A DNA stretch of 64,000 nt from a virus. Positions 1 to 61,015 of the stretch are shown here, piece after piece. Below the pieces are notes generated by a model. It was given only the letters and a program-made list of their open reading frames with translations, made no database searches and was not told the DNA's origin. Numbering within the stretch: the stretch's first letter is position 1; every line of letters begins with the position of its first letter. The translations under genes and the position numbers were made by a program. The stretch lies in the IMG/VR virus record IMGVR_UViG_3300037512_001384, positions 6,442 through 70,441 of that record. One strand, written 5' to 3'.

Positions 1-567
1 CAGGTCGCTCAGTTCCAGATTATGACCCGTGGCTTGATTCAGCTCGCCATACGTAGCGGTCAGTACCTCAGAATAACCAACGCCGTTGTACATGAGGGAG
101 AGCTTGTGAAGTATAACCCCTTCACTGATGACTACGAGTTTGACCCGACCAAACGCACAAGCGACAAGGTTATCGGTTATATGGCATACTTCCGTATGGT
201 TGACGGATATGAGAAGTATTTCTATATGACTGAGGCTGAAGTCCTGGCTCATGGCAAGAAATACTCCAAGTCTTTCAACTCCGGTCCTTGGAAGGACAAC
301 ACAGAGGCTATGTGTCTCAAGACCGTGATGAAGTTGCTCCTCTCCAAGTTCGGTATCCTGTCTATCGAGATGCAGCGTGCCATCAAGTATGACCAGGGTA
401 TCGCTAAGGGTGACTTCACTCAGATGGGTAGCGTCGAGGAGATTGACAATGCTGAAGTGGAATATGTCGATAACCCGGAAGAGAACAACAAGCCCGTTGA
501 AGAGAGCGCAGACAACAAGAAGGAAAGGATGCGCAAGGAAAAGAAGGAGAAACCGGAAATGCCGTAA
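1..567 (+). CDS. recT: RecT-family single-strand annealing protein (N-terminus upstream of window)
   Basis: Frame 1 is open from base 1. The core GYMAYFRMVDGYEKYFYMTEAEV..GPW..MCLKTVMKLLLSKFGILS resembles conserved RecT blocks. Charged K/E tail. Confidence 0.8.
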   Translation, partial: QVAQFQIMTRGLIQLAIRSGQYLRITNAVVHEGELVKYNPFTDDYEFDPTKRTSDKVIGYMAYFRMVDGYEKYFYMTEAEVLAHGKKYSKSFNSGPWKDNTEAMCLKTVMKLLLSKFGILSIEMQRAIKYDQGIAKGDFTQMGSVEEIDNAEVEYVDNPEENNKPVEESADNKKERMRKEKKEKPEMP

Positions 568-570
568 CGC

Positions 571-2658
571 ATGAACAAATACAGCAGCTACACTCCCGAT
601 GAGATGGATAACCTCCTGTCAGGTTATCTCATCGATTCATGGTCATACAGTAAGGTCAACACCTTCGCCCGTAACGAGAAGCAGTTTGAGAAGAACTTCG
701 TCTATCTCGAACCGGACAAACGCAGTATAAGCTCCATTGCCGGTAACGCCTATCACGAGGCGTTGAGGGTTTTCTTCATGGGCTACAATGAAGGTGCGAA
801 GAAGCCGGATCTTGTGGAGTTGTCAACGGTGGCATATAACTACATAGATGATGTTGACGCTAACACATGGAAGCTCAGTGATACTTATCCTTCCGTTGAC
901 CAGGCAAGAGAGCAATGTATCAAGATTGTCACTCTTCTGATTCAGAACTTCTGCGGCGAGTATGGTATCTATACCGACCATATAGCTGAGGTTCTGTCCG
1001 TCGAGGTCAAGGAAGAGTCTCTGGTGGTCTGCAACGGTGTCGATATCCCATTACCTCTGCATTATATTGCAGACCTTGTGATACGCACAAAGGACGGAAA
1101 GGTTGTCATCATAGACCATAAGAGCAAAAGCGCCTATACCGGTGACGATGAGGTCTCTCTTGTGCATGGTCAGCAGGCTATCGCTTACGTACTCGGATAT
1201 GAGCAGCATGACGAGAAGGATGACCGCCATGTAGATGAGGTCTGGTTCATCGAGAATAAGTATTCCAAGAACAAGAACGGCAGCGAGCAGCTTCGTCTGC
1301 ACCGTTTCGTGATGGATGAGGACTCACGCAAATTGCATGAGTATTATCTCTATCAGCCTCTTCGTCGTATGATAGAAGCTGTGGCTGATCCTGACTACAT
1401 CTACACAATCAACGCATCTGACAACCTTGCTGACAAGGCAGAGCTTTACGAGTTCTCGGCACGCACTCTGATTGCAGAGGTTGATGACTTCCCCAATATC
1501 CCGGAAAGGAAGAAGCCTCTGATAGAGAAACGTCAGCGTAAAATCAAGGACTCCAGCATCGCGATGATTTCACCGCGAGTCATACGTTCATTCAGAAAGA
1601 ATGCAGCATCGTTTATTACTTTCGACTATTCGCATAGCAATATGACAAACAAAGAAAAAATCGAACATAAGTTCCGTACCTTCGGCAAACAGGTTCAGGT
1701 AAGCCATGAGATAGAAGGATTCTCATGTAACACCTATCTGTGTGAGGTGGCGGCAGGCATACCCATCGCTTCTCTTAAGACATACGCGAAGGATATCGCT
1801 TACGCTCTTGATGTTCCGTCAGTACGTGTCGCTCAGGACCTGGTGGTACATGAAGGACGTTCTTATCTTTCCATAGAAGTGAGTAAGAAGAGTTCCGAGA
1901 TACTGGCATGGGATGCCAAATATCTTGAGGGTCATCGCATACCTCTCGGACTTGACAACTTCAAAGAGCCGGTAATATGGGATTTGGAGAACCATTCCAC
2001 TCCGCACATGCTTGTCTGTGGTGCTACCGGTTCCGGAAAATCCGTTCTTATCCGCTCTACTATCGCCTATGCCCTTCTCGCCAAGATGCGCGTTATCATC
2101 ATGGATCCCAAATACGAGTTCTCTGCATTCTCAGACAGATGTGAGGTTCATTCGGATATCGCAGACATAGAGAAACGCATGAAGGAACTTGTTGAGGAGA
2201 TGCAAGCCCGCAAGGGTACTTTCGGCGGTCTCACACTGATAGTATTCGATGAGTTCGCTGATGCAGTTTCATCGGCTCGTTCCGGCAAGGAGCTTGACAT
2301 CAGAGAGGAAGTGACAGTCGGTGAGTATAAGGATGGCAGACCGAAGAAGGAGTGGATTGTCACAGGACGTGACAAGAGTCTGGAAGAGAACCTGCAGATG
2401 CTCCTGCAGAAAGGTCGTTCTCTTGGTTATCGCATCCTGTCTGCCACACAGAGAGCTTCAGCCAAGGTTATCACAGGTGACGCCAAGGTCAATTTCCCAT
2501 GTATCTGTTGTTTCAGAGTACCCAAGGCTCTTGACAGTAAGGTTGTGATTGATGAGGATGGCGCACAAGCCCTTGCCGGTAACGGTGACGGACTGTTCAA
2601 GTCGCCTGAGTACATGGATCGTCTCGTGCGATTCCAGGGATTCTTCTATAAAGGATAA
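571..2658 (+). CDS. PD-(D/E)XK (RecB/Cas4-like) nuclease fused to an FtsK/HerA-type P-loop ATPase
   Basis: N-half: IADLV..VVIIDHKSK followed by HGQQAIAYVLGY (D..DxK plus QxxxY). C-half: Walker A CGATGSGKS, Walker B LIVFDEFAD, FtsK signature SATQRASAKVITGDAKVNFP. Starts 4 nt after the recT stop. Confidence 0.7.
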   Translation: MNKYSSYTPDEMDNLLSGYLIDSWSYSKVNTFARNEKQFEKNFVYLEPDKRSISSIAGNAYHEALRVFFMGYNEGAKKPDLVELSTVAYNYIDDVDANTWKLSDTYPSVDQAREQCIKIVTLLIQNFCGEYGIYTDHIAEVLSVEVKEESLVVCNGVDIPLPLHYIADLVIRTKDGKVVIIDHKSKSAYTGDDEVSLVHGQQAIAYVLGYEQHDEKDDRHVDEVWFIENKYSKNKNGSEQLRLHRFVMDEDSRKLHEYYLYQPLRRMIEAVADPDYIYTINASDNLADKAELYEFSARTLIAEVDDFPNIPERKKPLIEKRQRKIKDSSIAMISPRVIRSFRKNAASFITFDYSHSNMTNKEKIEHKFRTFGKQVQVSHEIEGFSCNTYLCEVAAGIPIASLKTYAKDIAYALDVPSVRVAQDLVVHEGRSYLSIEVSKKSSEILAWDAKYLEGHRIPLGLDNFKEPVIWDLENHSTPHMLVCGATGSGKSVLIRSTIAYALLAKMRVIIMDPKYEFSAFSDRCEVHSDIADIEKRMKELVEEMQARKGTFGGLTLIVFDEFADAVSSARSGKELDIREEVTVGEYKDGRPKKEWIVTGRDKSLEENLQMLLQKGRSLGYRILSATQRASAKVITGDAKVNFPCICCFRVPKALDSKVVIDEDGAQALAGNGDGLFKSPEYMDRLVRFQGFFYKG

Positions 2659-2663
2659 TCAAT

Positions 2664-3068
2664 ATGCAAGCAACTGGTAAGATTATAGCAATACTTGAAC
2701 CGCGTTCTGGCATTGCAAAGGCATCGGGCAATCCTTGGTTTATCCAAGGGTTCGTGCTTCAGACCGAAGAGCAATATCCGAAAAAGATACCATTTGAGGT
2801 ATCCGGTGAGGATAGAGTCAAGAACTTCAATATCCAAAAGGGTGAGACGCTGACCATCAGCTTCGATATTGACGCGAAAGAATGGAATGGAAAATGGATT
2901 CCTTCTATTCGATGCTTCAATATATCTCGTGGTGACGGTCAGCAGCAAGCAGCTCCGGCTCAAACGCAGAATCAGCAACCCGCACAACATGCTGCACCTG
3001 CACCGCAGGCACCGCCACCTGATCCGTTAGAGACCCAGGGAGGTGCAGATGATGATGTCCCCTTCTGA
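2664..3068 (+). CDS. DUF3127-type single-stranded DNA-binding protein with Q/P-rich linker and acidic DDDVPF tip
   Basis: MQATGKIIAILEPRSG..GNPW..QYPKKIPFEV..FDIDAKEWNGKW matches the Bacteroidota DUF3127 OB-fold pattern. The C-terminus ends DDDVPF, like the bacterial SSB tip. Confidence 0.75.
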   Translation: MQATGKIIAILEPRSGIAKASGNPWFIQGFVLQTEEQYPKKIPFEVSGEDRVKNFNIQKGETLTISFDIDAKEWNGKWIPSIRCFNISRGDGQQQAAPAQTQNQQPAQHAAPAPQAPPPDPLETQGGADDDVPF

Positions 3069-3133
3069 TTAGGATATGTCATTCATAGCCCGGTTAGGCT
3101 TGGTTGTCTCTCCGGGCACTAAAAGTGTTTTAC

Positions 3134-3418
3134 ATGAACGCAATAGATTTCACTCAGAAATACTCCTATGAGTTCATCCTTAAGCCTCCTCAAACCCTCG
3201 ATTATGAGGAATACAATGTTGATTGGTTCCTCACCCCTCGCGGTGACATGATGTGCAGGCGCGGCGGTTATGAAATATCGTCAGACATTCTGAACCGCCA
3301 ACACTGGCTGTGGTTTCTTGCAGAAAAACGTTGGTTTGACGCCAACACATTTCTTCCCGCCTATTTTGAGGCTTGTCGCAGAGCTGGGATAGAGAAAATT
3401 GAGATGAGGATAAGGTAA
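3134..3418 (+). CDS. hypothetical protein
   Basis: ORF-track ORF trimmed to the first ATG (MNAIDF). Preceded by hairpin GCCCGG..CCGGGC. Confidence 0.4.
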   Translation: MNAIDFTQKYSYEFILKPPQTLDYEEYNVDWFLTPRGDMMCRRGGYEISSDILNRQHWLWFLAEKRWFDANTFLPAYFEACRRAGIEKIEMRIR

Positions 3419-3424
3419 TTAACA

Positions 3425-4258
3425 ATGAAAGATTCATTTGTTTTTCATAAAGACTGGTACTTAGCCTTAAAAGGGTTAGACGTTCAAGACAAAGTTGAGG
3501 TCTATGAAGCTATAATGAGCAAAATATTTGATGGTGTAGATAAGAAACTTTCGCCTGTTGCACAGATGGCAATGAATTTTATTTCGCCACAAATTGAAAG
3601 GGATGTTGAACGTTATAATTCCATTTGTGAGCAACGCAAACTATTTGGTAGTAAGGGCGGTATAGCAAAAGCTACCAAAAGCTACCAAAAGGTAGCAAAA
3701 GGTAGCAAAAGCAAGCAAAAGGTGGCAAGTGTAGCTGATAATGATAATAATATATCATCTTCTACTAACGTAGAATCTGATAATGATATTATAGATATAG
3801 AAGTAAAAGATAAATCTTTTCCTTCTAAGAAAAAAAATAAATTATTTATACCGCCTACATTAAACGAAGTAGAGGCGTATGTAAAAGAAAAAGGCTATCA
3901 TTTCAGCGCCAAGGCATTCTTTGACTATTACGAAGCGGATGACTGGCATTACGGCAAAGGCAGTAATAGAACAAAGATATCGAACTGGAAGCGCTGTTGT
4001 GCCACATGGGAGGAGCGGCGTACTACAAGTAATAATATACCTCGTGAACCCGCATCGTTGTTTGATAACCATACTCCCGAACCGGAAGACGAACAGACTT
4101 TATTACAGAAAGCATACGAAGAACTGAACGACACCCAGGAGGCTGAGATATACGGAATGGTCCCCTATGAGTTTCACATGCTGAATGAGAACGGCAAGAA
4201 ATATTGGCGCGAAGTTTACAAGGAAAAGATGCTTGATTGGATCAAGAGCAACAGATGA
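3425..4258 (+). CDS. putative replication initiator / replisome organizer
   Basis: The N-terminal domain (FHKDWY..RKLFGSKGG) and the W-rich C-terminal block (FFDYYEADDWHYGKG..ISNWKRCCATWEERR) resemble phage replisome-organizer proteins. The central linker is encoded by iteron-like repeats plus an AT-rich tract. Confidence 0.45.
   Translation: MKDSFVFHKDWYLALKGLDVQDKVEVYEAIMSKIFDGVDKKLSPVAQMAMNFISPQIERDVERYNSICEQRKLFGSKGGIAKATKSYQKVAKGSKSKQKVASVADNDNNISSSTNVESDNDIIDIEVKDKSFPSKKKNKLFIPPTLNEVEAYVKEKGYHFSAKAFFDYYEADDWHYGKGSNRTKISNWKRCCATWEERRTTSNNIPREPASLFDNHTPEPEDEQTLLQKAYEELNDTQEAEIYGMVPYEFHMLNENGKKYWREVYKEKMLDWIKSNR
3661..3730. repeat. seven phased 10-bp units each ending AAAA (iteron-like array inside the organizer gene)
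   Basis: tatagcaaaa gctaccaaaa gctaccaaaa ggtagcaaaa ggtagcaaaa gcaagcaaaa ggtggcaagt. GCTACC and GGTAGC are inverted relative to each other. Confidence 0.85.
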
Positions 4259-6150
4259 GCGACAATATTCTTTATGTAGAGGATTTCAGACACGTCTTAG
4301 GCAGCAGGTCATCAGGTAACATAAAAACCTTCTGTCCTTTCTGCCATGAGAATCGTGGAAACAAGAGGGATAAATCCCTTTCGATAAACTGCGCGACCCT
4401 GGCATATAACTGCCATTATTGCGGTGCGAGCGGTTATCTGAAATCCCGGCATGAGGAAATGATGCGGAGAATAGACAGGGAAACAAGACAGATGTCCAAG
4501 ACTTATCGCAAACCCTCGGTCAAGCCCAACCTTCAACCTAAGCTCAATGCGGACATGGTTGAGTATTTCAAAGGGCGCGGCATCAGCGAGAAGACACTTC
4601 TTGAGGCGAAGGTCACAAAGGAGAATTTCTTTTTCCCGCAAGACAATTGCAAGCGCGGATGTATCGCTTTCAACTACTATGTTGATGACGAGCATATCAA
4701 CACCAAATATCGCACAAGGGACAAGCATTTCGCATTCATTGCCGGTGCCAAGGTAGTCCCCTATAACATAGACAGCATAAGAGAGAGCGCATTCAAGAAG
4801 GGTGAAAAGAAAATCTGCATCATCACTGAAGGTGAAGCGGATACTCTCACTTATATCGAATGCGGCTATAAGCATGTCATATCCATGCCGTCCGGTGCTA
4901 ACACCAATCTGGAATGGATGGATGACTTCACCGAATCCCACTTTGATAAACTTGAACTGATTTATGTATCGACAGACAGTGACAAGAAGGGTGTTGAAGC
5001 CAAGAATGAGATAGTACGAAGGTTTGGAGCTGAAGTATGTAAGATAGTTGAGTATCCGGAAGACTGCAAGGATATAAACGAGGTTCTTGTCAAATATGGA
5101 CCGGAGAAGGTAAAGGAATGCTTCGAGGGTGCTGCGGATATTAGAATCCAAGGTGTCGAGGAACTTGTTGACATAGAGTCAGACCTTGACAACCTGTTTA
5201 CTTCGGGACTTCAAAAGGGAGTAACCCTGGGATTGGAGGATATGGATAAACTTCTGTCCTTCAATACCGGAATGGTGACGGTCGTTACAGGAATCCCTTC
5301 GCACGGCAAAACCCAATGGTTGAATTTCGCTCTGATCAGACTCAATATCCTTCACTCATGGAAGGTGGCGTTCTTCTCTCCTGAGTTCTATCCTGTAGCG
5401 CTGCATATATCCCAAATCATAGAGACGCTTGGAGGTAAAAGGTTCTCATCCCAGAACTATACGCCTCAGACTTACGGCATCCTGAAGGAGTATGTCAACA
5501 AGAATTTCTTTTGGGTGGATCCTGATGACACGGATATAAGCTCAGTCTTGGACAGAGCCAAGTTCCTCATCCGCAAGAGAGGTATCAAGGCGTTTGTGAT
5601 TGACCCTTTCAATTCGCTGACAGACGAGAAGCGAACGATATACAAGCAGGATGAATATATTTCGGACTTCCTGCAGAAGATACGATGGTTCGCCAGGAAG
5701 TATGACGTTGCAATGTTCATCGTCATGCATCCCACCAAACAATACAAGCAGGATAACGGCTTATATCCGGTCTGTGACCTGTACTCATGTAAGGGTGCAT
5801 CTGAGATATACGACAAGGCTGATATCGGCATCACCGTATGGAGAAACGAGCAGGGTAATTACGGTGAGGTGCATGTGACCAAGATGAAGTTCCGTCACAT
5901 GGGACAGAAAGGACATGACACTTTCGTCTATAACTTCAATAACGCCCGGTTCGTTGAGATTCCCACTATGGACGCGAAGCGTGTGGCTCCCGACATGGAT
6001 AAAGTGAAGTGGGATAACAGCAATTATGTAATTGAGAATATCAAGACGCAGCAGAATCAGCAGGAATTGGATTTTGGAGCGGAGCAGCCGGAAACACCAC
6101 ATAATGAAAAACCCTTTGATGCGCCGATAGACGAAGATATCCCGTTCTGA
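4255..6150 (+). CDS. bifunctional primase-helicase (zinc finger + TOPRIM + DnaB/RecA-like helicase, T7 gp4-like)
   Basis: CPFC..CHYC zinc motif, TOPRIM ICIITEGEADTL and DSDKKG, Walker A GIPSHGKT. Start taken at the ATGA overlap with the preceding stop. Ends DEDIPF. Confidence 0.85.
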   Translation: MSDNILYVEDFRHVLGSRSSGNIKTFCPFCHENRGNKRDKSLSINCATLAYNCHYCGASGYLKSRHEEMMRRIDRETRQMSKTYRKPSVKPNLQPKLNADMVEYFKGRGISEKTLLEAKVTKENFFFPQDNCKRGCIAFNYYVDDEHINTKYRTRDKHFAFIAGAKVVPYNIDSIRESAFKKGEKKICIITEGEADTLTYIECGYKHVISMPSGANTNLEWMDDFTESHFDKLELIYVSTDSDKKGVEAKNEIVRRFGAEVCKIVEYPEDCKDINEVLVKYGPEKVKECFEGAADIRIQGVEELVDIESDLDNLFTSGLQKGVTLGLEDMDKLLSFNTGMVTVVTGIPSHGKTQWLNFALIRLNILHSWKVAFFSPEFYPVALHISQIIETLGGKRFSSQNYTPQTYGILKEYVNKNFFWVDPDDTDISSVLDRAKFLIRKRGIKAFVIDPFNSLTDEKRTIYKQDEYISDFLQKIRWFARKYDVAMFIVMHPTKQYKQDNGLYPVCDLYSCKGASEIYDKADIGITVWRNEQGNYGEVHVTKMKFRHMGQKGHDTFVYNFNNARFVEIPTMDAKRVAPDMDKVKWDNSNYVIENIKTQQNQQELDFGAEQPETPHNEKPFDAPIDEDIPF

Positions 6151-6688
6151 TCAAGACATACTTTATAGGCATATTATATTTCTTAGAGCCATGCATTATG
6201 GTATCCTTGCGACCGTCATAACCGGTTGCTATCTCCTGTATGGCTTCATGGTCAAAGAAATACTTCTCCTGTTTTGACATCAGGAATATATATTCATGTG
6301 CCTTCGTACAGCGGTCTTTGATGCTTTCGGGCTGCGGATTCAGCTTATGCCAGATGATGTCATTTCTCAGACGGAATCCGATACGGTCTCTTAGTGCGAA
6401 AGCCGCCATCCAGGGAATACCGATAAGACTTTTTGCATTGTCATAGCTATCTCCGAGGTTCAGCCAGAGCGTTCCTTCCGGTTTAAGAACGCGAAACACT
6501 TCCGTGAATACTTCGGTGAGTCTGTCGATATACTCTTCTGGTGACTTCTCCAGACCTATCTGACCGTCAATACCGTAGTCTCGCAGATTGAAATATGGCG
6601 GTGAGGTGACACAGCAATCAACGCAGTTGTCAGGAAGGCTTTTCATTCCGGTGAGGCAGTCTTCATTGAAAACTTTGTTGATTTCCAT
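6041..6688 (-). CDS. N-terminal half of a beta-class N4/N6 DNA methyltransferase (SPPY motif IV), separated from its 3' half by inversion
   Basis: MEINKVFNEDCL..DCCVTSPPYFNLRDY..LWLNLGDSY..NDIIWHK..HEYIFLMSK. Methyltransferase similarity stops at the repeat (6163-6175). The rest of the ORF is read-through antisense to the primase-helicase gene. Confidence 0.75.
   Translation of the reverse strand: MEINKVFNEDCLTGMKSLPDNCVDCCVTSPPYFNLRDYGIDGQIGLEKSPEEYIDRLTEVFTEVFRVLKPEGTLWLNLGDSYDNAKSLIGIPWMAAFALRDRIGFRLRNDIIWHKLNPQPESIKDRCTKAHEYIFLMSKQEKYFFDHEAIQEIATGYDGRKDTIMHGSKKYNMPIKYVLIRTGYLRLSAHQRVFHYVVFPAAPLQNPIPADSAAS
6163..6175. repeat. left inverted repeat of invertible segment 1 (TTATAGGCATATT)
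   Basis: Perfect reverse complement of 6692-6704. An imperfect extension brings it to about 20 bp. Confidence 0.9.
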
Positions 6689-6691
6689 TAC

Positions 6692-6704
6692 AATATGCCT
6701 ATAA
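6692..6704. repeat. right inverted repeat of invertible segment 1 (AATATGCCTATAA)
   Basis: Reverse complement of 6163-6175. Contains the ATG (6695) of the downstream ORF, in the same codon phase as the N-half. Confidence 0.9.
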
Positions 6705-7108
6705 TGCCTTCGGGTAACAGGCAGACGATGGCTACGCACGGGCATCAGCGATGGAGGTTCAAGAACCTTCAGGATGATGGACAGCAACCCAATTCGATGC
6801 ATATCAGACGTGCTGCCGGATTGCCGGACCAGCAATATCCGGTCAGAAACAAAAGGGATGTATGGAGTGTAGCCACCAAACCTGAGAAGGCGGCTCATTT
6901 CGCTGTCTATCCCGAAGAGCTCATCAGACCTTGCATCCTTGCCGGATGTCCGAAAGGTGGCCTGGTGCTTGACCCGTTTATGGGAAGTGGCACGACAGCC
7001 AGGGTCGCCCGTAAGTACAATCGCAACTTCATAGGGTATGAACTGAACCCTGAATATATCAAGATTATCAATCAGAAGACGGTGGTGACACCGGACTTGT
7101 TCTCATAG
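6695..7108 (+). CDS. C-terminal half of the same beta-class DNA methyltransferase (AdoMet-binding motif I)
   Basis: RNKRDVWSVATKP..AHFAVYPEELIRPCI..VLDPFMGSGTTARVA..GYELNPEY. No motif IV on this strand. Confidence 0.75.
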   Translation: MPIMPSGNRQTMATHGHQRWRFKNLQDDGQQPNSMHIRRAAGLPDQQYPVRNKRDVWSVATKPEKAAHFAVYPEELIRPCILAGCPKGGLVLDPFMGSGTTARVARKYNRNFIGYELNPEYIKIINQKTVVTPDLFS

Positions 7109-7114
7109 AAACCT

Positions 7115-7141
7115 ATTGTTTAACTAAATATCTATAGTATG
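7115..7141 (+). promoter_or_regulatory. plus-strand copy of the conserved leader motif (ATTGTTTAACTAAATATCTATAGTATG)
   Basis: Same motif and ATG spacing as the roughly 30 minus-strand cassettes at 27-45 kb. Confidence 0.5.
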
Positions 7142-7648
7142 GCAGGTTTAAGAAGTAGAAGTGGTTTTTGGATGGAAGCAACCATCGAGATCACAGAGAC
7201 AACCCCCAAAGGGTTGCCAAAGACAGTGAGAGAACGCTACACAGTTGAGGCAGCGTCATTCATTGACGGTGAGGAGAGAATCCGCAAGGAGCTCAACTAC
7301 TCCAACCGTCCTATCAAGACCGTGAGCGGTATGTTGCGCCCCAAGTACGGTGAGATTTGTTTCTCTGATGACGCAGCAGCTGAGAACTGGTACAAGGTTA
7401 AGGTTGATATGAAGGAGGAGGTAGAGGTAAGAACCCGTAAGGGTGGCACCCGCACCAAGACCAAGACCGTATCGCACTATTATCTTGTCCAGTCTGACTC
7501 CAACGAGAACGCTCGCAAGGCAATCGGTGACGAGATTTACAAGGGTTCAAACGCCGACTATGAGATAGCCGATGTCGTGAAGACCCGTATCCTGGATGTG
7601 CTGGAGAAGGATAAGCATCTGAAGAGTGCTGAGAAAAAGGAAAATTAA
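7139..7648 (+). CDS. DUF4494-like protein
   Basis: FWMEATIEI..YTVEAASFIDGEERI..WYKVKVDM..YYLVQSDS fits the Bacteroidota DUF4494 pattern. The start is supported by the leader motif. Confidence 0.55.
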   Translation: MAGLRSRSGFWMEATIEITETTPKGLPKTVRERYTVEAASFIDGEERIRKELNYSNRPIKTVSGMLRPKYGEICFSDDAAAENWYKVKVDMKEEVEVRTRKGGTRTKTKTVSHYYLVQSDSNENARKAIGDEIYKGSNADYEIADVVKTRILDVLEKDKHLKSAEKKEN

Positions 7649-7669
7649 CCGTACACCATTTTGTTGTTG

Positions 7670-7712
7670 GAAAGCCCTATGCCGTGCCATTGCGGTGTAG
7701 GGCTTTCTTTTT
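7670..7712 (+). terminator. rho-independent terminator
   Basis: GAAAGCCCTA..TAGGGCTTTC stem followed by TTTTT. Confidence 0.8.
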
Positions 7713-7722
7713 GAGAGAAGGG

Positions 7723-8202: not shown

Positions 8203-8222
8203 CGATTATATCTGTCTGGGTT

Positions 8223-9363: not shown

Positions 9364-9374
9364 CAAATTATTTC

Positions 9375-29073: not shown

Positions 29074-29157
29074 AATGATTGTTTGAGTTATTATTGGCGG
29101 AGCAGCTGATGTCACTCAATCAGCTCCAGGACGTGGGATTTGTCCTTTGGAAAAGTG

Positions 29158-44515: not shown

Positions 44516-45100
44516 TTAATCAACTTTGCAAACTCTTGTAAAACCAAATTTTGCCAACAGTTCAGGAGTTAAAAGACTTGCGTCTATTCCAAGACTTGCG
44601 GCCAGACTTGCGGACGCTCTTTGCAATTGCTTTTCATTTGCCTGCTTGCGTGCAGTCCGTGCAACTTCATCCCTGAATATATCGTAACTATTAAAACAAG
44701 TACGGAGGCCAGCGGCCGAAATTGTAGTTTTACGGTATGGAGTTAAACCGCTTTCCGTATTTCCTATTGTGTTTGTATCCGCTTCACTTTGAAAAGTGAT
44801 TGTAAAGTTGTTTGTTGCTTTCCTCACTTTTGCAAACACCCTCAAAAACAGATATTTTTCTGTTGCCATAAAAGGAGCGGAACGGAAAGAATCCGCAAAA
44901 CAAGCGGATAATTTATTAAGGTTTTCGGCCTCAATACTTGCGTTTTCGTTGTCAATACTTGCAAGTAGTTTGCTAATTGTGGTTTTACTTGCGTTTGCTT
45001 TTCTCAATTCCTTAACTGAAATACTTGTTACCAGTGTTTCAAGTTCAACGGTTGAAATACCTGAATAAAGGTAATCAACAAGATTTTTGTTTACTTGCAT
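44516..45100 (-). CDS. hypothetical protein (first gene of the leftward block)
   Basis: Cassette-defined start. Has its own terminator. Confidence 0.55.
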   Translation of the reverse strand: MQVNKNLVDYLYSGISTVELETLVTSISVKELRKANASKTTISKLLASIDNENASIEAENLNKLSACFADSFRSAPFMATEKYLFLRVFAKVRKATNNFTITFQSEADTNTIGNTESGLTPYRKTTISAAGLRTCFNSYDIFRDEVARTARKQANEKQLQRASASLAASLGIDASLLTPELLAKFGFTRVCKVD

Positions 45101-45763
45101 AGTTGTAATATTTAAGAGTTAATAAAATAGTGTCAAAGTGCGCATATCGGAAACACCTTTCCGACACTATAAAATTACAAAAATAATCCGATATAATGCC
45201 AATATTTGTATATTTAACTTATGTTTAATTGATTGATATATAGTAAGTTATAAAGAAAGATTATACAATATTGTAGTATATATACAGGTTATTATTGTAT
45301 ATATACATAGATAGTTAATTATATAATAACTTAAATATATAGATATTTAACGGAAAAATACTTACAAATTGATCCCAGAGTTTCGGCAATAGGTGCAAAC
45401 CGATGAACACACAACCAACACGGCAATAAAGCGGAAAAGTTGCAAGGAGCGACAAACCCCACAACGGACCGACAACGCGACCGCGAGCGGATACAATACA
45501 ATTATAATGTATTTGTTTTGCAGGAAAAACCGCGCGAATACCCCACCCAGAGAAGGCTACCCCCGACCCCCTAAATACGTTTGTATTGCGTGGGGGTCAG
45601 CCCCCGCCGAGATTTTCAATTTTTCATTTTTCGTTTTTACTTTTCGTATGCGGAACATGTTTCTGTGTATCTCAATCGGTGTTTCTGGTCTATATATATC
45701 AGTCCTGATGCCGTGTATCCTTGTCTGCGCGTTGATTATGGTCTGATACATGGGTATCTATGG

Positions 45764-45845
45764 AAAAAGGGTCAAAAAAGCCTGAAAAAGCCCCAAAATA
45801 CCCTGAAAATAGGGGTCAAAAAGAGGTGCTTTTCCTCAAAAAAGG
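45764..45845. repeat. helically phased A-tracts (predicted intrinsic bend)
   Basis: A-runs start at 45764, 45774, 45785, 45795, 45806, 45818 and 45838, spaced 10-12 bp. GGGTCAAAAAG occurs twice. Confidence 0.75.
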
Positions 45846-45865
45846 CTGTTTTTGGCGTATGAATG

Positions 45866-45982
45866 TACCAAAAATGGAATTTGATGTACCAAAATAGAGA
45901 TTACCAAAAAAAAACGTAAGTTATTGAAATATAGGGTAGATATTTGTCATGCAATGAACCAAATGAACCAAATGTACCAAAT
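45866..45982 (+). repeat. six (G/T)(T/A)ACCAAA(A/T) repeats upstream of the D5-like helicase gene
   Basis: gtaccaaaaa 45866, gtaccaaaat 45887, ttaccaaaaa 45901, gaaccaaat 45956, gaaccaaat 45965, gtaccaaat 45974. Confidence 0.8.
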
Positions 45983-46025
45983 TTCGATACCCAGGTATTG
46001 GTTTGTTTAGTTATTGTTTTTATAT

Positions 46026-47483
46026 ATGGGTAAAGGTACACAAAACAACAATTTCACGCTTATTGAAGACCTTAGTAAGCTGATTTACAACTCGCTGAAC
46101 AAAGCTCCGTTGAAGGAGTCCTATAAGCTGTATTCATCGGGTGACAGGGTATATGTCTATCAGGAGGTCATCCTTGATGCCTGCAGCAAGTGTTTCCGGT
46201 CTTACATGGGTGATGTATATTACTTCGACGGCAGGATATGGTGTCCTCTGGCTGATATTGTGCTTGAGACTGCGTTGAGCAAGGCGTTGGTGCAGGGAGG
46301 AGCGCGTAAGTCGGATATCGTGAATGCCAGGAGCAAGATTCTGTATTCGGCACGTGGCGGTGCGTCGATGTCACCGTTGGAGTTGCGTGCGTCGGTCATC
46401 GGATTCCGTAACGGCGTATGGGATTTCACTGACATAGACAACCCGGTCTATCACTCTTTTGCCGAGCGTATGCCTGTGGTGCGGATACTCCCTTACGACT
46501 ATGACCCTGATGCGGGCTGTCCGAAGTGGCAGGCGTTCCTGCAGTCCATCTTGCCGAAGGGTGAGATAATGAAGCTCCAGAAGTACCTCGGTCTCGGCTG
46601 TGCTGACCGTAAGAGCATGACGCATAAGATTGAAGAGACGCTGTGGCTCATCGGGTCGGGTGCCAACGGCAAGTCCACCATCTTCGACGTGGTACGCGGG
46701 GTGTACGGTGCGGATAACATCAGCTATGTGGGTCTCGATACGCTGCTTAGCGGCTCGTCGGACGTGCGTGCGCGGTTCATCGGGAGCATCGTGGGTAAGA
46801 TCTTCAACTACTGCTCGGAGATACAGGCGGATGACATATCACGTTACGCCGATACCTTCAAGTCCCTCTGTTCGGGTGAGCCGCAGACCGTGAGAAGGTT
46901 GGGTCAGAACCCCGAGACCACCTTCGACATACCGTTCCTTGTGTTCAACATGAACCAGAAGCCCACGAACCGGCGTATGGACCAGGCTCTCGTGCGCCGT
47001 CTGCTCTTCATACCTTTCAAGACCACCGTCTCTGCCGCCGACATGAACCGTGAGCTCTCGTCGGAGCTGCTGAAGGAGCTGCCGGGTATCCGCAACTGGA
47101 TGATAGAGGGCTATAAGATGCTCATACGTGACGGCTATCAGTTCAACACCACCAAAGCCGCCGATGATGAGATGACCGACTACATGCTGGAGAACGGTCA
47201 GACGGTGCAGGTGTTCCTACAGAAGAAGGGCTACTCATGTAACAGGCGCACGGGACACTGGGAGGACCGTATCCAGTGGGTTCCTGCGTCCGCTCTCTAT
47301 GAGGACTATGTGTCGTTCTGCGAGAAGTGGCTGCAGGATCCTGTCAAGCAGCGTGCTTTCGGCAGTGAGATGGCACGTCTCGGATGGCATGAGACGGGAG
47401 GGAACCGCAAACGTACCGGCACGGGTTACGCCTACGGCATCTTCTGCGAGAAGGATATCGATTACGCAAAAAATAACATCTGA
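46026..47483 (+). CDS. P4-alpha / poxvirus D5-type primase C-terminal domain with SF3 helicase
   Basis: YDPDAGCPKWQAFLQSIL..LQKYLG..WLIGSGANGKSTIFDV (Walker A). ORF trimmed to MGKGTQ. Confidence 0.8.
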   Translation: MGKGTQNNNFTLIEDLSKLIYNSLNKAPLKESYKLYSSGDRVYVYQEVILDACSKCFRSYMGDVYYFDGRIWCPLADIVLETALSKALVQGGARKSDIVNARSKILYSARGGASMSPLELRASVIGFRNGVWDFTDIDNPVYHSFAERMPVVRILPYDYDPDAGCPKWQAFLQSILPKGEIMKLQKYLGLGCADRKSMTHKIEETLWLIGSGANGKSTIFDVVRGVYGADNISYVGLDTLLSGSSDVRARFIGSIVGKIFNYCSEIQADDISRYADTFKSLCSGEPQTVRRLGQNPETTFDIPFLVFNMNQKPTNRRMDQALVRRLLFIPFKTTVSAADMNRELSSELLKELPGIRNWMIEGYKMLIRDGYQFNTTKAADDEMTDYMLENGQTVQVFLQKKGYSCNRRTGHWEDRIQWVPASALYEDYVSFCEKWLQDPVKQRAFGSEMARLGWHETGGNRKRTGTGYAYGIFCEKDIDYAKNNI

Positions 47484-53590: not shown

Positions 53591-55348
53591 TTAGTGTGTT
53601 GCGTTCCACCGGTTCCAGTTGTTCTCGTTCGGACGATTACCCCACTTGTCGGTATTCAGACGGTTGGGTCTTCCCTGTCCGCGACCTGTGGCTACCGAGC
53701 CTTTGGTCTTCTTTGAGACCTTACCTTTCTCCTCCTGTCCCTGCTCAATCCTGTTCTCAGCTTTGGCGACCTCAATTTGCTGGTTGGTCTCAATCTCACT
53801 GAGCTCACGCTGCATGTCTATGTTAGCGTCGTTCTGAATCTCCAGACGTTGCTCTTCAAGGAGCAGCTGGTTCATCATAGCCTCATGCTCCTCGTTGCAG
53901 ATACGCTCCCATTCGTTCGGTGTAGCATACGGGCTCTTCTCGGATGCCGTCTGTCGTGACAGGAACTTACCTACCACGGATGTGTTGAGGTTATTGGTCA
54001 GCTCGGTGTTGTTGACATGGATGTAAGGCTCAAGGTAATGACGTATGTTGGTTTTCATAAACGACAGCCTCATCTCAGCCTCGATGCCGTAACCCCATGT
54101 GAATATCTGAACCATGTCATCCACCACGCCGTCATACTCCTGTGCGTCATTCATAGCCTTCTCATAGGCGTCGGAGTACATGATCTTCAATGCCACACCC
54201 GGAGTGTCACCGGACTTGAGCTCAGGAGTCTTGACGGCGAAGGACTGCTTGTATATGGCATCCTCCACCTTATCCAGCTCGGCTTTGTAGGCGTTGGAGG
54301 CATCCTGGCGGTTGAGGAATCCAATCTCACCGTCTTCAGGAAGCAGCATTATCTTCGATGCGTATGACATATCCTTGGTGGTGATCTCCTCCGAACCCTC
54401 GCCCTTGACATACATGATAGGCAGACCGAAGTCATGGTTGCTGTGGGCGAGGTTGGAGAAGGCTACCTCATAGTTCTCGATGGACTCCTCTGAGAATGTC
54501 CAGCACGGACCGTTGTCATCACGCTTGTAAGCGACCGGGATACCGTTGAAACCATGCGGTTCTATGTACTCCAGCTTATAGCCGTCGGTGGAGAATATCT
54601 TCAGTATGAGTTGCTTCGCCTTATCGAAGATATTGGAAGGGTCGCCGTCAGCCACGAACCGGTAGTAGTAGGTGTTGTCCCATACGTCGATGTAACGCTT
54701 GGTGACGCTGCCGTCTTCCGAGTAGTTGCAGTAGGTACGTGCCAGGGTGTTGATTTTGCCGGTACGCATGTCATAATGCGGAAACAGACGGTCGCCGTTG
54801 AGGAAGCTCAGCACCTTCCATCCGAACTTACCGTTATCCATGAAGCCCACGAACGCGCCGTCACCGGTCGCCTTGACGGACTTGGCCAGCTGATACCATG
54901 CCACCTCCATGTTCTTGTTCGCCCATCCGTTACGGAAGGCGTTGAAGACGTTACGGCTCTCTTCGGTCACGGTGGTATCCGACAGCTCGAACTGCACGTC
55001 ATTACCGCACAGGTGTGTGAGGTGCTTGACGAGTATGATCTGCTGGTATGCGAAGGCGTAACGTGGTATCTCCTGGATATACCAGCGTCCGTCCTCCTCG
55101 TTCTGCTGCCATACGTCAGGGTAGAGCTCCCTGTCGTTGATGATGTGTCCTGCAGGATCCAGCTCACGCAAGAAATCCTCCTGTGTGATAATCTTACGTC
55201 TGAGGATGTCATGTGTCAGCGGAATCTCCGACGCTTCGTTCCAAACATACCCGTGGTCATAATGACCGTCGGGAAGGATACGAGTGAAAGGCTTCTTTGT
55301 CAGAAGGTCTCTCAGTTGTTTCTTGGTCTCGATGATGTTGTCTGCCAT
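53591..55348 (-). CDS. portal protein
   Basis: 585 aa, between TerL and the MuF-like gene. Basic disordered C-tail. Called by size and position. Confidence 0.6.
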   Translation of the reverse strand: MADNIIETKKQLRDLLTKKPFTRILPDGHYDHGYVWNEASEIPLTHDILRRKIITQEDFLRELDPAGHIINDRELYPDVWQQNEEDGRWYIQEIPRYAFAYQQIILVKHLTHLCGNDVQFELSDTTVTEESRNVFNAFRNGWANKNMEVAWYQLAKSVKATGDGAFVGFMDNGKFGWKVLSFLNGDRLFPHYDMRTGKINTLARTYCNYSEDGSVTKRYIDVWDNTYYYRFVADGDPSNIFDKAKQLILKIFSTDGYKLEYIEPHGFNGIPVAYKRDDNGPCWTFSEESIENYEVAFSNLAHSNHDFGLPIMYVKGEGSEEITTKDMSYASKIMLLPEDGEIGFLNRQDASNAYKAELDKVEDAIYKQSFAVKTPELKSGDTPGVALKIMYSDAYEKAMNDAQEYDGVVDDMVQIFTWGYGIEAEMRLSFMKTNIRHYLEPYIHVNNTELTNNLNTSVVGKFLSRQTASEKSPYATPNEWERICNEEHEAMMNQLLLEEQRLEIQNDANIDMQRELSEIETNQQIEVAKAENRIEQGQEEKGKVSKKTKGSVATGRGQGRPNRLNTDKWGNRPNENNWNRWNATH

Positions 55349-55359
55349 ATCTGTTGATG

Positions 55360-58107
55360 TTAATTATAGTGTGGTGACAGCTTACGCACTGTCCTTACCC
55401 GGTTTCCTTTCTGGAGCCAGTTGGGTACGGTAGCCTGCGTATGCTTGATGTCGAAAATCTCACGCATAAACAGAGCCTCGAAGAAGTCCGGTGAGTGACC
55501 TACGACGGCTTTGTTCTTCATCTGTTCCTTGTGAATAAGACACCATCCCTTATCGGCTTTTGACATATCCTGCTTGACGCATTTACGTTCAAGCTGCAGG
55601 ATGGCATATAATGTCTTGATCTCCTTTCCTATCTTGTATTTGCGCTGCAGCAGTGTCGGCTCGATGCTCCATCCGGACTGCTGTGTGCGCTCCGCGAACT
55701 TGTAAGCGCACTGTGACTTCTTGTTGTCATAGAGATGCTTGTCCTTGACGGACACAGCCTCCTGGTTGTTGAACGGTACGGCACGCGGGAACGCACCTTT
55801 GAGCACCTGTCCCATTCCGTTGAGGTCATAGGCGAAGTTCTCCTCCAGCACACCCCACTCACGCAGTTTCTCTTTCAGCATGGATGCGGTGGTGAAGGGG
55901 TCACGACGGCATACGAAGACATCGGCGACATGCCATCCTATCCACAGCCATGTGACGCAGTTGTCACCGCCGTCACCTGCTACGTCACAGGTGGCGCGAC
56001 GTATCTTGTCACCTACCATCTGTGAGTTCTTGAAGCAGGAATCGAGATGGAACGGCTGTATCATGTCATCACCCATCTTGATGATGTCCCAGTTACCGTC
56101 GAACTCACGGGCCCTGATTTCAGGAGGTTGGTTGAGCAGTGATGCTATATAACCCGGGTCGTTCTTGAGCAGCGCCTTGTTGTCCTTGAGGTTAGCCTTG
56201 ACGAAAGTGACCGATTTGACGAAGAAGGAGGTCTTGGTGTAGCCGTACTGCTCCCACTCGGGGTCCCATGCGTCATCAATCATCTCCTTACACTGCTCAT
56301 ATACCTCTTCGGGTGTGTCACCCCAGATGATGTTATCCACGCTATCATCCGGCATGTAGCAGTAACGCAGCACGCCGTCACGCTCCGGTATGGCGAACCC
56401 TTTGCGTTCCGGGTGTTTCTTACCGTCGAGATAGACGGTATCCTCCTTGCCTATCCACCAGTCCACGAACTTACGCAGCCATGACAGAGGGTCGGGGTTG
56501 CAGGTGCCGAGGATACGAGAATGGACACCGACGGTGTTACGGTTACAGGTCATCAGGAACTTGAACATCTCGAACGGCATCTGCGGCAGCTCGTCGATAC
56601 CGATATACGCGAACTGCTGTCCACGGAACTTTCTGTCGAAGTCCGCCATCGGCATGTCGTAAATGGTCAGTCCCAGCTTGGCTCCGGAACGGAAGTTCCA
56701 GGTCATATCATCCTTGGACTTGTTGTATCGTCCGAGTCCGGAGAACCAACGCTGGCTTTCGTTGATGATATTATCGAAGTCATCCTTGTTCCTTCTGAAG
56801 ATGTAACCATTAAAGTGCTTGTTCTTGATGTCATACATCGGTTCCATGAGCATTGTCACGGTATTGTGGTTGATGGTGTATGCATCGGTCAGATACAGGT
56901 GGTCACGTCCGGTGACGGTGATGCAACGGCACTGCTGCTTGGTATGATCCTTCGTTATGTACTGGATTTTCTTGGACAGCATGTTGGTGCATTGCGGGTT
57001 GGTCGGACATTCGGCGTTGACCCTGACAGTCCGGTCCGCTCCGCTGCCTTTCCTGAACAGTTCCTTGTCGTTCGGCGCCTTCATGGTGACGCGCCACCAT
57101 CCGAGGTAATTGGGTTCATCCTCTACCTGATGCACACGCGCCCATATACCCAGCGAGCGTGCGAGTTCAGCTATATCATCTATGAAATCCTTGTTCGGGA
57201 GTGTGATTATCGGACAGTTATGTCTTGTACGTCCGGAGCGTGCCATGATGCCAAGCAGGTATGACCATCTCACGGACACCGCTGCAGTCTTATACTCATG
57301 CGGTATGCGACAGGGCTCTTCCTGTCTGCAGCATGTTATCCTGCGTCTGTTTTCGTCGCTGATGCCGCGAATATAGAAGAAGCCGTCTTCTGCGTTGAGG
57401 TTGACCTTATAACCCCAAGCGCGGTATCTGACACGCATGAACTTGTCATCATCGAGGCGGATTCCCTTCTTGCCGAACTCCCATGTCCCCTTGCTGCTAA
57501 GAACGCCGAGCAGATACGGATGTATAGGCATATCGATGGCGGTCTTCTGCTCGTTCATCTCCACCTTGCCACAGAGCGGTATCTCCACATACTGTGTCTT
57601 ACCCCTACGCAGTGACATAGGGAACGGACGGTCTATGACGTAGTTGTCGAATATCTCACGTGCGGTCATCTCATGGTATATGTCACCTGCACCCACGCGA
57701 GCCCAGAACCGGTGGTTGTTCATGCATTTGAGTGTCGTGCCGTCATCGAAGTGTAGCGTGTATATCGTCTGCTCACCCTGCTCGAATATCTCACTGACCT
57801 TCTGAACGCCGTTGTAGGGCGTACATATAAGGTCGCCCACCTCCAGGTCGCCCATCCTGCGGAATCCCGAGGGTGTGGCTACCATAGTGCTGTAGGGGTT
57901 GGCTTTGCCGCCGCCCCTGTTGCCGCCGAACACCGTGATGTCCGCGACATTACCGAGTCCGAACTCCTGAGCGCCATCCTGGACGATGAAATATTTGTTT
58001 TTCTTGTCCGTTTCGGCTATCGTCCGAATATGCGGTAAAAAATCGTGACTAAAGATGTTCTTTCCATCCTTAGTACGTAACGCTGTCAAGCATGTTGAAT
58101 CCTGCAT
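55360..58107 (-). CDS. terL: terminase large subunit interrupted by an intein in the Walker A motif
   Basis: FGGNRGGGK | intein | TVTM.. restores GxxxxGKT. Downstream are IGIDE (Walker B) and LGTCNPD. ATG at 58107 is preferred over GTG at 58152. Confidence 0.85.
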   Translation of the reverse strand: MQDSTCLTALRTKDGKNIFSHDFLPHIRTIAETDKKNKYFIVQDGAQEFGLGNVADITVFGGNRGGGKANPYSTMVATPSGFRRMGDLEVGDLICTPYNGVQKVSEIFEQGEQTIYTLHFDDGTTLKCMNNHRFWARVGAGDIYHEMTAREIFDNYVIDRPFPMSLRRGKTQYVEIPLCGKVEMNEQKTAIDMPIHPYLLGVLSSKGTWEFGKKGIRLDDDKFMRVRYRAWGYKVNLNAEDGFFYIRGISDENRRRITCCRQEEPCRIPHEYKTAAVSVRWSYLLGIMARSGRTRHNCPIITLPNKDFIDDIAELARSLGIWARVHQVEDEPNYLGWWRVTMKAPNDKELFRKGSGADRTVRVNAECPTNPQCTNMLSKKIQYITKDHTKQQCRCITVTGRDHLYLTDAYTINHNTVTMLMEPMYDIKNKHFNGYIFRRNKDDFDNIINESQRWFSGLGRYNKSKDDMTWNFRSGAKLGLTIYDMPMADFDRKFRGQQFAYIGIDELPQMPFEMFKFLMTCNRNTVGVHSRILGTCNPDPLSWLRKFVDWWIGKEDTVYLDGKKHPERKGFAIPERDGVLRYCYMPDDSVDNIIWGDTPEEVYEQCKEMIDDAWDPEWEQYGYTKTSFFVKSVTFVKANLKDNKALLKNDPGYIASLLNQPPEIRAREFDGNWDIIKMGDDMIQPFHLDSCFKNSQMVGDKIRRATCDVAGDGGDNCVTWLWIGWHVADVFVCRRDPFTTASMLKEKLREWGVLEENFAYDLNGMGQVLKGAFPRAVPFNNQEAVSVKDKHLYDNKKSQCAYKFAERTQQSGWSIEPTLLQRKYKIGKEIKTLYAILQLERKCVKQDMSKADKGWCLIHKEQMKNKAVVGHSPDFFEALFMREIFDIKHTQATVPNWLQKGNRVRTVRKLSPHYN
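56863..57903 (-). mobile_element. 347-aa intein with a degenerate LAGLIDADG domain, Ala at position 1, ends HN, +1 Thr
   Basis: Block A ANPYSTMVATPSGFRRMGDL, block B LKCMNNHRFW, LAGLIDADG-like YLLGVLSSKG and YLLGIMARSG, block F/G CRCITVTGRDHLYLTDAYTINHN|T. Confidence 0.75.
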
Positions 58108-58261
58108 ATTTCTTATACATTTTTGACAAAGATATTTCAGAACAAGTGTCACATACGGTGTATTTCATTGGTAAAATGAAAGATTACCAAAATAAAAGCG
58201 CTTAGGAAAACACCAATCACTATAATTTGGCGAAAAATCTTTACAAATTATAGCAATTGGT

Positions 58262-59851: not shown

Positions 59852-61015
59852 ATGAGAGACCAAAATCTTTATGGAATCAACGGTCTGCATCAGTATGTGG
59901 ACGCTGAGAGCTTCGGTCTGATCCTCGATAACGTCAACGCAAAGTACAACAATGCGATTTGGCGTCAGTTTGCTTCGTGGGGACAGCCGTCAAACGAGAG
60001 AGAGTGGAAGCAGGGTCTGAAGAAGACTCCTATCCTGGTACGTGCCAGCGTGCTCGGTACTCATTCCGAGAAGCCGCAGCGCTCAACCCAGGGTTGGGAA
60101 CTCTACGGAGGCACACTGCCCAAGGTAGGTCACGGATTCAGCATCGACCAGGATGACCTGATTGAGCTCCGTCGTTACAGCAAGGTCAATGACATCACCT
60201 TCGGTGAGGCCATTACCGACAGCTTCATACAGAACTCCAGCAACATGCTCGGAGGTGTACACAACGAACTCTCCTACATGACCCTCCAGGCCATGTCAAC
60301 AGGTGAGATTCACGATGTCGCCGTTGACGGCTACAAGTACGACTTCAAGTTCCAGATCCCCGAGGAGAACTTCGTAGCTCCCGACTCTGGCAAGGAGTGG
60401 TATGTATGGGATACCACCAGTGGCACTCCCAAGCTCGTCGCCAACGAGAACGCCGATGTCATCGAGGACATCTTGACCTTCCAGGATTACTACACCAACG
60501 TCCGCAACCTTGGTGTTGACCACTGGAAGCTGTCGAAGAACCTGCTCGACAAGATCGTGCTCCATCCGAGTGTCGTGAAGGCTTACATCGCCAGCAAGAA
60601 CTACTTCTCACCGACCAACGTGAAGGTGGTTCGCACCGATGTGCTGGCATGGATGCACAATGACATGAAGATATGGCCGTTCCAGGTCATCGACTTCAAG
60701 TCACGTCACGAGGAGGACGGCAAGCCCGTTGCCGATGCTCCCGCCTTCGATGAGCACAACATGGTAGCTGCCTCACGCGCTTACCGTCTCTTTGAGATGA
60801 AGTGCATGAACAGCGTCTATGTTGACCGCGTGAAGCTGGGTGGTCTGAGCGCTTCGGACCGCTATTCATTCGTTGAGGGACGTATCGCCGTGCTCAATAC
60901 ATGGCAGGAGCGTCCTATCAAGAACATCGTGGACTGCGAGCTCTTCGCCGGTCCTGTGTTCAACAACGTGAATGACTACGGCATCGCTACCGTATGGTAC
61001 GACTACGCCGGGTAA
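59852..61015 (+). CDS. putative major capsid protein
   Basis: 387 aa. Called by position in the head module and size only. Confidence 0.5.
   Translation: MRDQNLYGINGLHQYVDAESFGLILDNVNAKYNNAIWRQFASWGQPSNEREWKQGLKKTPILVRASVLGTHSEKPQRSTQGWELYGGTLPKVGHGFSIDQDDLIELRRYSKVNDITFGEAITDSFIQNSSNMLGGVHNELSYMTLQAMSTGEIHDVAVDGYKYDFKFQIPEENFVAPDSGKEWYVWDTTSGTPKLVANENADVIEDILTFQDYYTNVRNLGVDHWKLSKNLLDKIVLHPSVVKAYIASKNYFSPTNVKVVRTDVLAWMHNDMKIWPFQVIDFKSRHEEDGKPVADAPAFDEHNMVAASRAYRLFEMKCMNSVYVDRVKLGGLSASDRYSFVEGRIAVLNTWQERPIKNIVDCELFAGPVFNNVNDYGIATVWYDYAG

Follow-up and report, generated by a model that had tools for sequence, protein, structure and literature searches.

In phage lambda, the O protein binds the replication origin through its N-terminal part and recruits the helicase machinery through its C-terminal part. 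The origin itself, ori-lambda, lies in the central part of gene O and consists of intrinsically bent iterons and an AT-rich region, and the number of iterons varies among lambdoid relatives, which changes the length of the protein linker (PMC7466680). In phage SPP1, oriL, composed of AB boxes and a DNA-unwinding element (DUE), is embedded in gene 38, which encodes an initiator that is not of the AAA+ type (PMC5737612). In this study, we analyzed a stretch of 64,000 nucleotides from a virus (positions 6,442 to 70,441 of the IMG/VR record IMGVR_UViG_3300037512_001384; hereafter the window) and focused on the element at 3661-3850, an array of short repeats followed by an A+T-rich tract within the gene at 3425-4258. 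The product of this gene carries an N-terminal domain (N-domain) of the family DUF6291. On the sequence evidence set out below, the element is likely to be a replication origin acting in cis, of the kind known from lambda and SPP1, situated where the gene for its own initiator encodes the linker. A first-pass annotation had already likened it to the iterons and AT-rich tracts within the lambda and SPP1 initiator genes, and this likeness is borne out by constraint at the DNA level, a family-wide layout, linkage to the N-domain, a shared C-terminal domain (C-domain) and helicase or loader genes downstream.

The array consists of seven contiguous 10-bp units: TATAGCAAAA at 3661-3670, GCTACCAAAA at 3671-3680 and again at 3681-3690, GGTAGCAAAA at 3691-3700 and 3701-3710, GCAAGCAAAA at 3711-3720 and GGTGGCAAGT at 3721-3730. 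All seven had been described as ending in AAAA; the units are there, but six of them have this ending and the seventh is degenerate. The exact 10-bp phasing claimed for the A4 tracts is correct, with six starts at 3667, 3677, 3687, 3697, 3707 and 3717. Tandem Repeats Finder (TRF) reported a period of 10 with 6.6 copies and 85% matches at 3663-3728, and also a period of 30 with 2.2 copies. The motif GSTASCAAAA was observed four times against 0.28 expected, a count reached in none of 100 shuffles. The AT-rich tract at 3731-3850 is likewise present, although its A+T content is 80% and not about 75% as first given. Only 0.17% of 120-bp segments are equally AT-rich, and the tract ranks second in the window at this length, after 45221-45340.

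The first-pass annotation also read the units as inverted half-sites. The order of two GCTACC followed by two GGTAGC is real in the window, but it is lost in the close relatives L125, L127 and L001, which have GCTAGC, GCAAGC, GCTACC or GGTAGC at the corresponding positions, in differing orders. The family consensus of the unit is WGCTAGCAAA, that is, a near-palindromic hexamer and an A-tract, with one unit per helical turn. Judged from these alignments, the units are best described as departures from one near-palindromic core, GCTAGC, and not as conserved inverted half-sites. The array DNA in the window has hairpin potential (z = -3.9) because of this near-palindromic core. A promoter and terminator scan of 3000-4600 gave matches at chance level only, and a tRNA was the sole Rfam match in the window.

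The repeat encodes a basic peptide, KATKSYQKVAKGSKSKQKVA, whose sequence is conserved across the family. One could therefore suppose that it is selected as protein, namely as a lysine-rich low-complexity linker or a DNA-binding tail, with the DNA periodicity as a by-product. We regard this as extremely improbable. Repetition of a peptide cannot give rise to a period of 10 bp, and translation passes through the unit in all three frames, the peptides ASKSKQKVA, SKCKQML and KSYQKLP being three-frame read-outs of consecutive units. Codons were aligned with those of five relatives (L127, L001, L002, L006 and L019) that share 30-58% N-domain identity with the window; in the repeat segment, identity is 78-94% for nucleotides but only 58-88% for amino acids. 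At conserved residues, 86-95% of the codons are identical in the repeat versus 30-55% in the flanking N- and C-domains (Fisher p 1e-4 to 2e-3 for the five relatives; the contrast was not significant for L125, which is near-identical and so uninformative); synonymous positions in the repeat are thus frozen. Among relatives that share only about 50% identity in their domains, no part of the protein is better conserved than the linker peptide GGIAKASKSYQKLA.GSKSKQKVASVADND. Third codon positions in the arrays are as conserved as the others (0.85, versus 0.78 for first and 0.88 for second positions), in a test that is partly circular. The unit matrix and the counts of serine and glutamine codons are also partly circular, since the arrays had been defined by ASCAAA, and we give them little weight. 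Other subfamilies encode unrelated peptides at this place (NPKNP, NGTNGT, EQMEQ and NQTEP) and have only the helical period and the A-runs in common, and the repeat segment is modelled as disordered. Because nucleotide identity exceeds amino acid identity, synonymous sites are frozen, the period is not a multiple of three and the product is disordered, the DNA is the conserved entity. These comparisons show that selection on the array is exerted at the DNA level rather than through the peptide.

The layout extends across the DUF6291 family. Our first retrieval of relatives, in which most loci carried 3-15 phased units at the corresponding place, was biased in that the repeat peptide itself was among the search patterns. 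An unbiased retrieval with an N-terminal peptide pattern only gave 51 loci with 44 distinct genes. The first-pass annotation had held that absence of the repeat from relatives would speak against an origin; in fact, 37 of these 44 genes carry a tandem repeat with a period of 9-11 or 19-23 bp at amino acids 70-135, against a background of 0.07 per equal-sized segment elsewhere in the surveyed loci. About ten unit sequences are found among the subfamilies, each with an A-run of at least three: GCTAGCAAAW, TGGAACAAA (14.7 copies in L075), AAAACCCAAT, ACAACCCAAA, CGAAATCGAAA, AACCAAACAAT, AAAAACAAGC, a 20-mer and a 23-mer are examples. An AT-rich tract of hexamer period, (TAATGA)n or (AATGTA)n encoding DNDNVN, is present in 40 of the 44 genes; in 32 of 34 it follows the helical-period repeat on its downstream side. 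The 90-bp stretch of highest A+T content in the gene has its center at amino acid 126 in the relatives and 127 in the window. Within 6 kb on either side of the gene at 47 loci, no second unit cluster of note was found, the arrays lying only inside the gene; a pair of units in L125 has no conserved counterpart in the window.

The type of unit follows the lineage of the N-domain, being common to 30 of 34 nearest neighbors. The array and the AT tract are kept with the N-domain in P0019, P0021, P0022 and P0026 despite a different C-domain. Conversely, where the C-domain of the window is joined to another N-domain, other repeats are found: 3.8 copies of 23 bp in L130 and 2.0 copies of 23 bp in L131, both followed by tracts of roughly 80% A+T. 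In L129, a PF09681 N-domain is joined to a window-type C-domain and the equivalent linker holds a 21-bp repeat of 2.8 copies, and A+T content does not peak markedly at that place. Three copies of ATAACGTTAC are also present in L129.

A census of IMG/VR that started from the DNA (four ASCAAA motifs in 10-bp phase) found at least 120 stretches, of which 80 were fetched and 71 were evaluable. A DUF6291-like N-domain lies directly upstream of the array in 44 of these 71, and the remainder are mostly simple microsatellites. Four loci (L146, L151, L171 and L181) have 10-bp-phased AGCAAA arrays with CGAA/CAAA spacers, located within short open reading frames (ORFs) in which no DUF6291 N-domain is recognizable. 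Searched with a profile of the N-domain alone (E up to 1e-3), protein clusters at 50% identity gave 11,842 matches, and the best 134 full-length representatives show like classes of linker 'peptides'. Phages and prophages of Bacteroidota and of marine bacteria make up most of the relatives sampled.

Conservation at the DNA level is silent on which function is selected. The array might be a DNA element of another kind, such as an autoregulatory operator or roadblock for transcription of the initiator gene, a conserved recombination junction for the exchange of C-terminal modules between phages or a slippage-prone tract (10 bp not being a multiple of three) that would switch the initiator off by frameshift, and we consider this family of explanations improbable. 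It is true that exchange of C-domains takes place immediately downstream of both the array and the SVADND tract, and that the number of units varies: the close genes L051:2364-3200 and L052:5995-6837 have 6 and 15 units and differ by three extra 30-bp blocks. However, growth in multiples of three units keeps the reading frame in this pair, and copy-number differences between intact genes in general stay in frame. A Capnocytophaga DUF6291 gene (L064:517-978) is frameshifted within its 20-bp repeat and AT tract relative to L060:6001-6915 and encodes 154 instead of 305 amino acids, which could be due to slippage in the repeat, with truncation of the initiator, or to an error of assembly, this single case coming from a metagenome-assembled genome (MAG). 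The origin reading is favored over these alternatives because the array is constantly paired with an AT tract, its spacing is helical with in-phase A-runs, the initiator gene stands near helicase genes and both lambda and SPP1 provide precedents.

The protein itself has the architecture expected of a modular initiator. DUF6291 (PF19808) is the sole Pfam match of the 277-amino-acid ORF product, with 64.9 bits against a cutoff of 27.2, over amino acids 4-82 and profile positions 1-79 of 79. The AlphaFold model is confident at amino acids 1-78, 141-200 and 223-277, and the predicted local distance difference test (pLDDT) score is below 50 for residues 81-135 (nucleotides 3665-3829); the repeat and the AT tract therefore encode a disordered linker between DUF6291 and the C-domain, as the first reading had placed them. 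Homology searches found the C-domain, with the motif FIPPT..EV..Y..EKGYHF.A..F.DYYEA.DW, also behind PF09681 (the N-domain of replisome organizers of the SPP1 G38P type; in P0040-P0061), PF06970 (RepA_N), PF13730 (HTH_36) and PF14297 (Lin1244_N), N-domains of RepA_N type and HTH_36 type being those of P0036 and P0013. Since this C-domain is common to unlike N-domains, DUF6291 fills the slot of the origin-binding domains in modular initiators. Architecture makes 'replisome organizer' a reasonable label; homology of the N-domain does not. Comparison of the N-domain by hhalign gave probabilities of 0.2% with the PF09681 protein P0040 and less than 1% with a Lin1244_N protein. No model of the lambda O family matched in Pfam and NCBIfam scans of the initiator, a profile search of PDB sequences returned nothing relevant to it, and no clear fold match of the three-helix N-domain model to solved structures was found, DNA-binding folds such as the winged helix, often attributed to origin-binding domains, included. 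Neither Pfam on the C-terminal half alone nor NCBIfam on the whole protein assigned a family. DUF6291 is mentioned in no paper of the literature searched. A megablast search of positions 1-9000 against 50,697 phage records gave no match, and tblastn retrieved only distant, unannotated relatives.

The initiator gene stands in a replication-recombination module with the order RecT, PD-(D/E)XK/FtsK fusion, DUF3127, a small ORF, the DUF6291 gene and Toprim-DnaB_C. A relative of 50% identity (L127) has ERF, YqaJ, DUF3127, DUF6291 and DnaB_C in like order, on a contig with an integrase gene. On the 3' side of DUF6291 genes in relatives, DnaB, IstB/DnaC-like or Toprim-DnaB_C genes are found. The particular C-domain and tail of the window recur in P0009 and P0012, and there too a Toprim-DnaB_C gene is next. 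No relatives were retrieved when they were sought through the primase-helicase of the window. The fusion of a PD-(D/E)XK nuclease to an FtsK/SpoIIIE ATPase in this module is unusual in itself.

A mechanism can be proposed from this arrangement. The DUF6291 N-domain (amino acids 1-78) would bind the GCTAGC-like hexamers, one per helical turn, along one face of a DNA helix to which the six in-phase A4 tracts would already have given a bend. The resulting nucleoprotein complex would destabilize the adjacent 120-bp tract of 80% A+T, and the C-terminal domain and tail would recruit the Toprim-DnaB_C primase-helicase encoded directly downstream. The DUF3127 protein, which resembles single-strand DNA-binding proteins, and the RecT/nuclease pair may support later steps of replication. 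What the sequences show is the anatomy of the repeat and AT tract, selection on the DNA, a family-wide layout with subfamily-specific units, the modular domain architecture and the synteny; that the N-domain attaches to the repeats, that the DNA bends and melts, that the helicase is recruited and that the site serves as an origin in vivo are inferences.

Several observations weigh against this proposal. Cumulative GC skew, which the first-pass annotation had suggested as a check, has no inflection at 3.7 kb; it rises monotonically there and reaches its minimum near 45 kb. The skew in the window follows gene orientation and is therefore confounded as an origin signal. Lambda iterons, at 19 bp, are longer than the contiguous 10-bp units described here, and we know of no characterized origin built from contiguous 10-bp units. 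In addition, the window contains a second origin-like region at 45100-46013. Given this second candidate at 45-46 kb, it is not established that 3661-3850 is 'the' origin of the phage.

It is conceivable that 45100-46013 is the primary origin of a phage of approximately 105 kb, fired by the adjacent P4-family primase/helicase, with the in-gene array being secondary, vestigial or used in an alternative mode, or that both origins coexist, like oriL and oriR in SPP1; we think this unlikely. No other 120 bp of the window are as AT-rich as 45221-45340 (85%), which lies in this region together with five copies of AATGWACCAAA and many other direct and inverted repeats, and the skew minimum falls near the region. 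SPP1 G38P binds two origins (PMC5737612). The gene at 46014-47483 passes the model TIGR01613 ('phage/plasmid primase, P4 family') with 134 against 108.7 bits. The triple 9-bp repeat upstream of it is kept in relatives with 66-86% identical primases, and more distant relatives have different triple repeats in its place. However, this stretch doubles as a divergent promoter region, and an operator reading fits at least as well. In several relatives, TATCTTTGCA lies upstream of the triple repeat and resembles the Bacteroidetes -7 promoter consensus, TAnnTTTG; the operator reading rests on this promoter-like element just upstream. Moreover, the skew minimum coincides with a switch in gene orientation, and the family-wide evidence for the in-gene element is untouched by anything at 45-46 kb. 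For 45100-46013, the roles of main origin, of second origin and of a mere promoter/operator region all come into consideration, and the two candidate sites are not mutually exclusive. The two primase-helicase-type proteins of this one phage are encoded by genes 42 kb apart.

The first-pass annotation had linked the two regions through recurrence of the core TACCAAAA at 45866-45982. Copies do exist at 45866, 45887 and 45902, and the window has 6 matches against 1.8 expected. However, the copies at 45866-45909 belong to the AATGWACCAAA family, the cluster is part of the repeats upstream of the primase gene, and nothing ties it to DUF6291; each of these copies deviates from the DUF6291 unit at the well-conserved G2. 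The link between 3.7 kb and 45.8 kb is probably coincidental.

G+C content rises from about 0.44 to about 0.54 at approximately 46 kb. By blastn, both the minus-strand genes at 40-43 kb and the region at 45.8-61 kb are found in one lineage, on contigs of up to about 105 kb. Relatives thus share sequence on both sides of the shift, and it is therefore not an element boundary; the window looks like a part of one phage lineage of approximately 105 kb rather than two elements. Elsewhere in the window, a tyrosine-recombinase gene (26668-27510; 'integrase' in PHROGs) adjoins a second FtsK-like gene (27697-29115), and the phage carries a tRNA-Gln with anticodon TTG (9293-9364). The coordinates of the features discussed are collected in Table 1.

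Table 1. Features of the window and of related loci discussed in the text. Positions are those of the window unless a locus is named.
Feature	Position	Strand	Basis or remark
RecT-like annealing protein gene	22..567	+	Pfam/PHROGs
PD-(D/E)XK nuclease/FtsK-like fusion gene	571..2658	+	Recombination half of module
DUF3127 gene	2664..3068	+	PHROGs annotation single-strand DNA-binding protein; replication module
Initiator (replisome-organizer-type) gene, 277 amino acids	3425..4258	+	DUF6291 N-domain, disordered linker, C-domain, helical tail
N-domain coding part (amino acids 1-78), proposed origin-binding	3425..3658	+	Three-helix unit, long basic third helix
Proposed iteron array, seven contiguous 10-bp units	3661..3730	+	Sequence, TRF, motif counts
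Proposed DUE, 80% A+T tract	3731..3850	+	GATAAT-type hexamers
C-domain (amino acids 141-200) and helical tail (amino acids 223-277), proposed helicase-recruiting part	3845..4255	+	
Primase-helicase gene (Toprim + DnaB_C)	4237..6150	+	Overlaps end of initiator gene; Pfam; phrog_239 at 8e-80
Intergenic region between divergent genes, 900 bp	45100..46013		21-bp repeat at 45763-45822, many inverted repeats
Triple 9-bp repeat	45953..45982		Conserved upstream of P4-family primase gene in related viral contigs of about 105 kb
D5_N/DUF5906 gene	46014..47483		P4-family primase model
Portal gene	53591..55348		
Large terminase gene	55360..58152		
Major head gene	59852..61015		
Initiator genes with other N-domains (PF09681 or unassigned)	L129:3001-3852, L130:3001-3966, L131:3001-3954		

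An origin inside the gene for its initiator is a classical design. What is new is the assignment of a large uncharacterized family, DUF6291, to this design. Also new, on the comparisons made here, are the contiguous one-turn repeats in several specificity classes and a putative binding domain with no detectable relation to known origin-binding proteins. We put forward, tentatively, the further idea that DUF6291 may represent a large class of phage initiators that read 'one-turn mini-iterons', that is, contiguous units of 9-11 bp (a core and an A-run), with the protein arrayed along one face of bent DNA. Such an array would contrast with spaced dimers on iterons of 17-22 bp. If this is true, the specificity class of an origin could be read from the linker 'peptide' of its initiator, which would be an overlapping read-out of the DNA sites. 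Apart from this further idea, the reading of the element as an in-gene origin gives a testable function, that of an origin-binding initiator, to a domain of unknown function that matches approximately 12,000 protein clusters. It also provides a simple sequence rule for finding origins in the genomes of the relatives: a helical-period repeat behind the N-domain, followed in turn by a (GATAAT)n tract. The locus is in addition a clear case of overlapping codes, in which the most conserved 'peptide' lies in a disordered linker and owes its conservation solely to being a DNA site. These points are relevant to annotation, to analyses of non-synonymous to synonymous substitution ratios (dN/dS) and to the building of vectors for Bacteroidota.

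Among the described systems, satellite phage P4 (alpha primase-helicase, with iterons at ori and crr) is comparable to the 45-kb site only, where the gene at 46014-47483 meets the P4-family model and short direct repeats precede it. This protein and this site are distinct from 3661-3850, and the repeats lie directly upstream of the gene, near a promoter-like sequence. Iteron plasmids (RepA_N, and the Rep proteins of pPS10 and RK2) have direct repeats to which the replicon's own initiator binds, beside an AT-rich DUE, an arrangement that the in-gene element would resemble, and N-domains of the RepA_N and HTH_36 types occur on proteins with the C-domain of the window (P0036 and P0013). Plasmid iterons are typically 17-22 bp long, about two helical turns apart and usually outside the rep frame, whereas the units of the window are 10 bp long, contiguous and coding.

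The arrangement resembles that of SPP1, in which repeats and an adjacent DUE also lie inside the organizer gene and the initiator is likewise not of the AAA+ type. The C-domain of the window occurs in proteins that bear PF09681, and one of these genes (L129) has linker repeats of its own. On the other hand, the N-domain is not detectably homologous (0.2% by hhalign with P0040), the repeat units differ in sequence and length, and in SPP1 the loader (G39P) and the helicase (G40P) are separate proteins. The second G38P-bound origin, oriR, is proven in SPP1 and is conjectural in the phage of the window. No sequence relationship to the lambda protein was found, Pfam giving DUF6291 only, and the N-domain model is a three-helix unit with no clear match among solved structures. 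Lambda iterons are inverted repeats of about 19 bp, unlike the contiguous 10-bp units, and the window has a Toprim-DnaB_C primase-helicase gene directly next to the initiator gene instead of a P-type loader gene. The likeness to lambda lies in the design: an origin in the middle of the initiator gene, tandem repeats with in-phase A-tracts, an AT-rich tract on one side, and an array that is inherited together with the N-domain while the C-domains are exchangeable.

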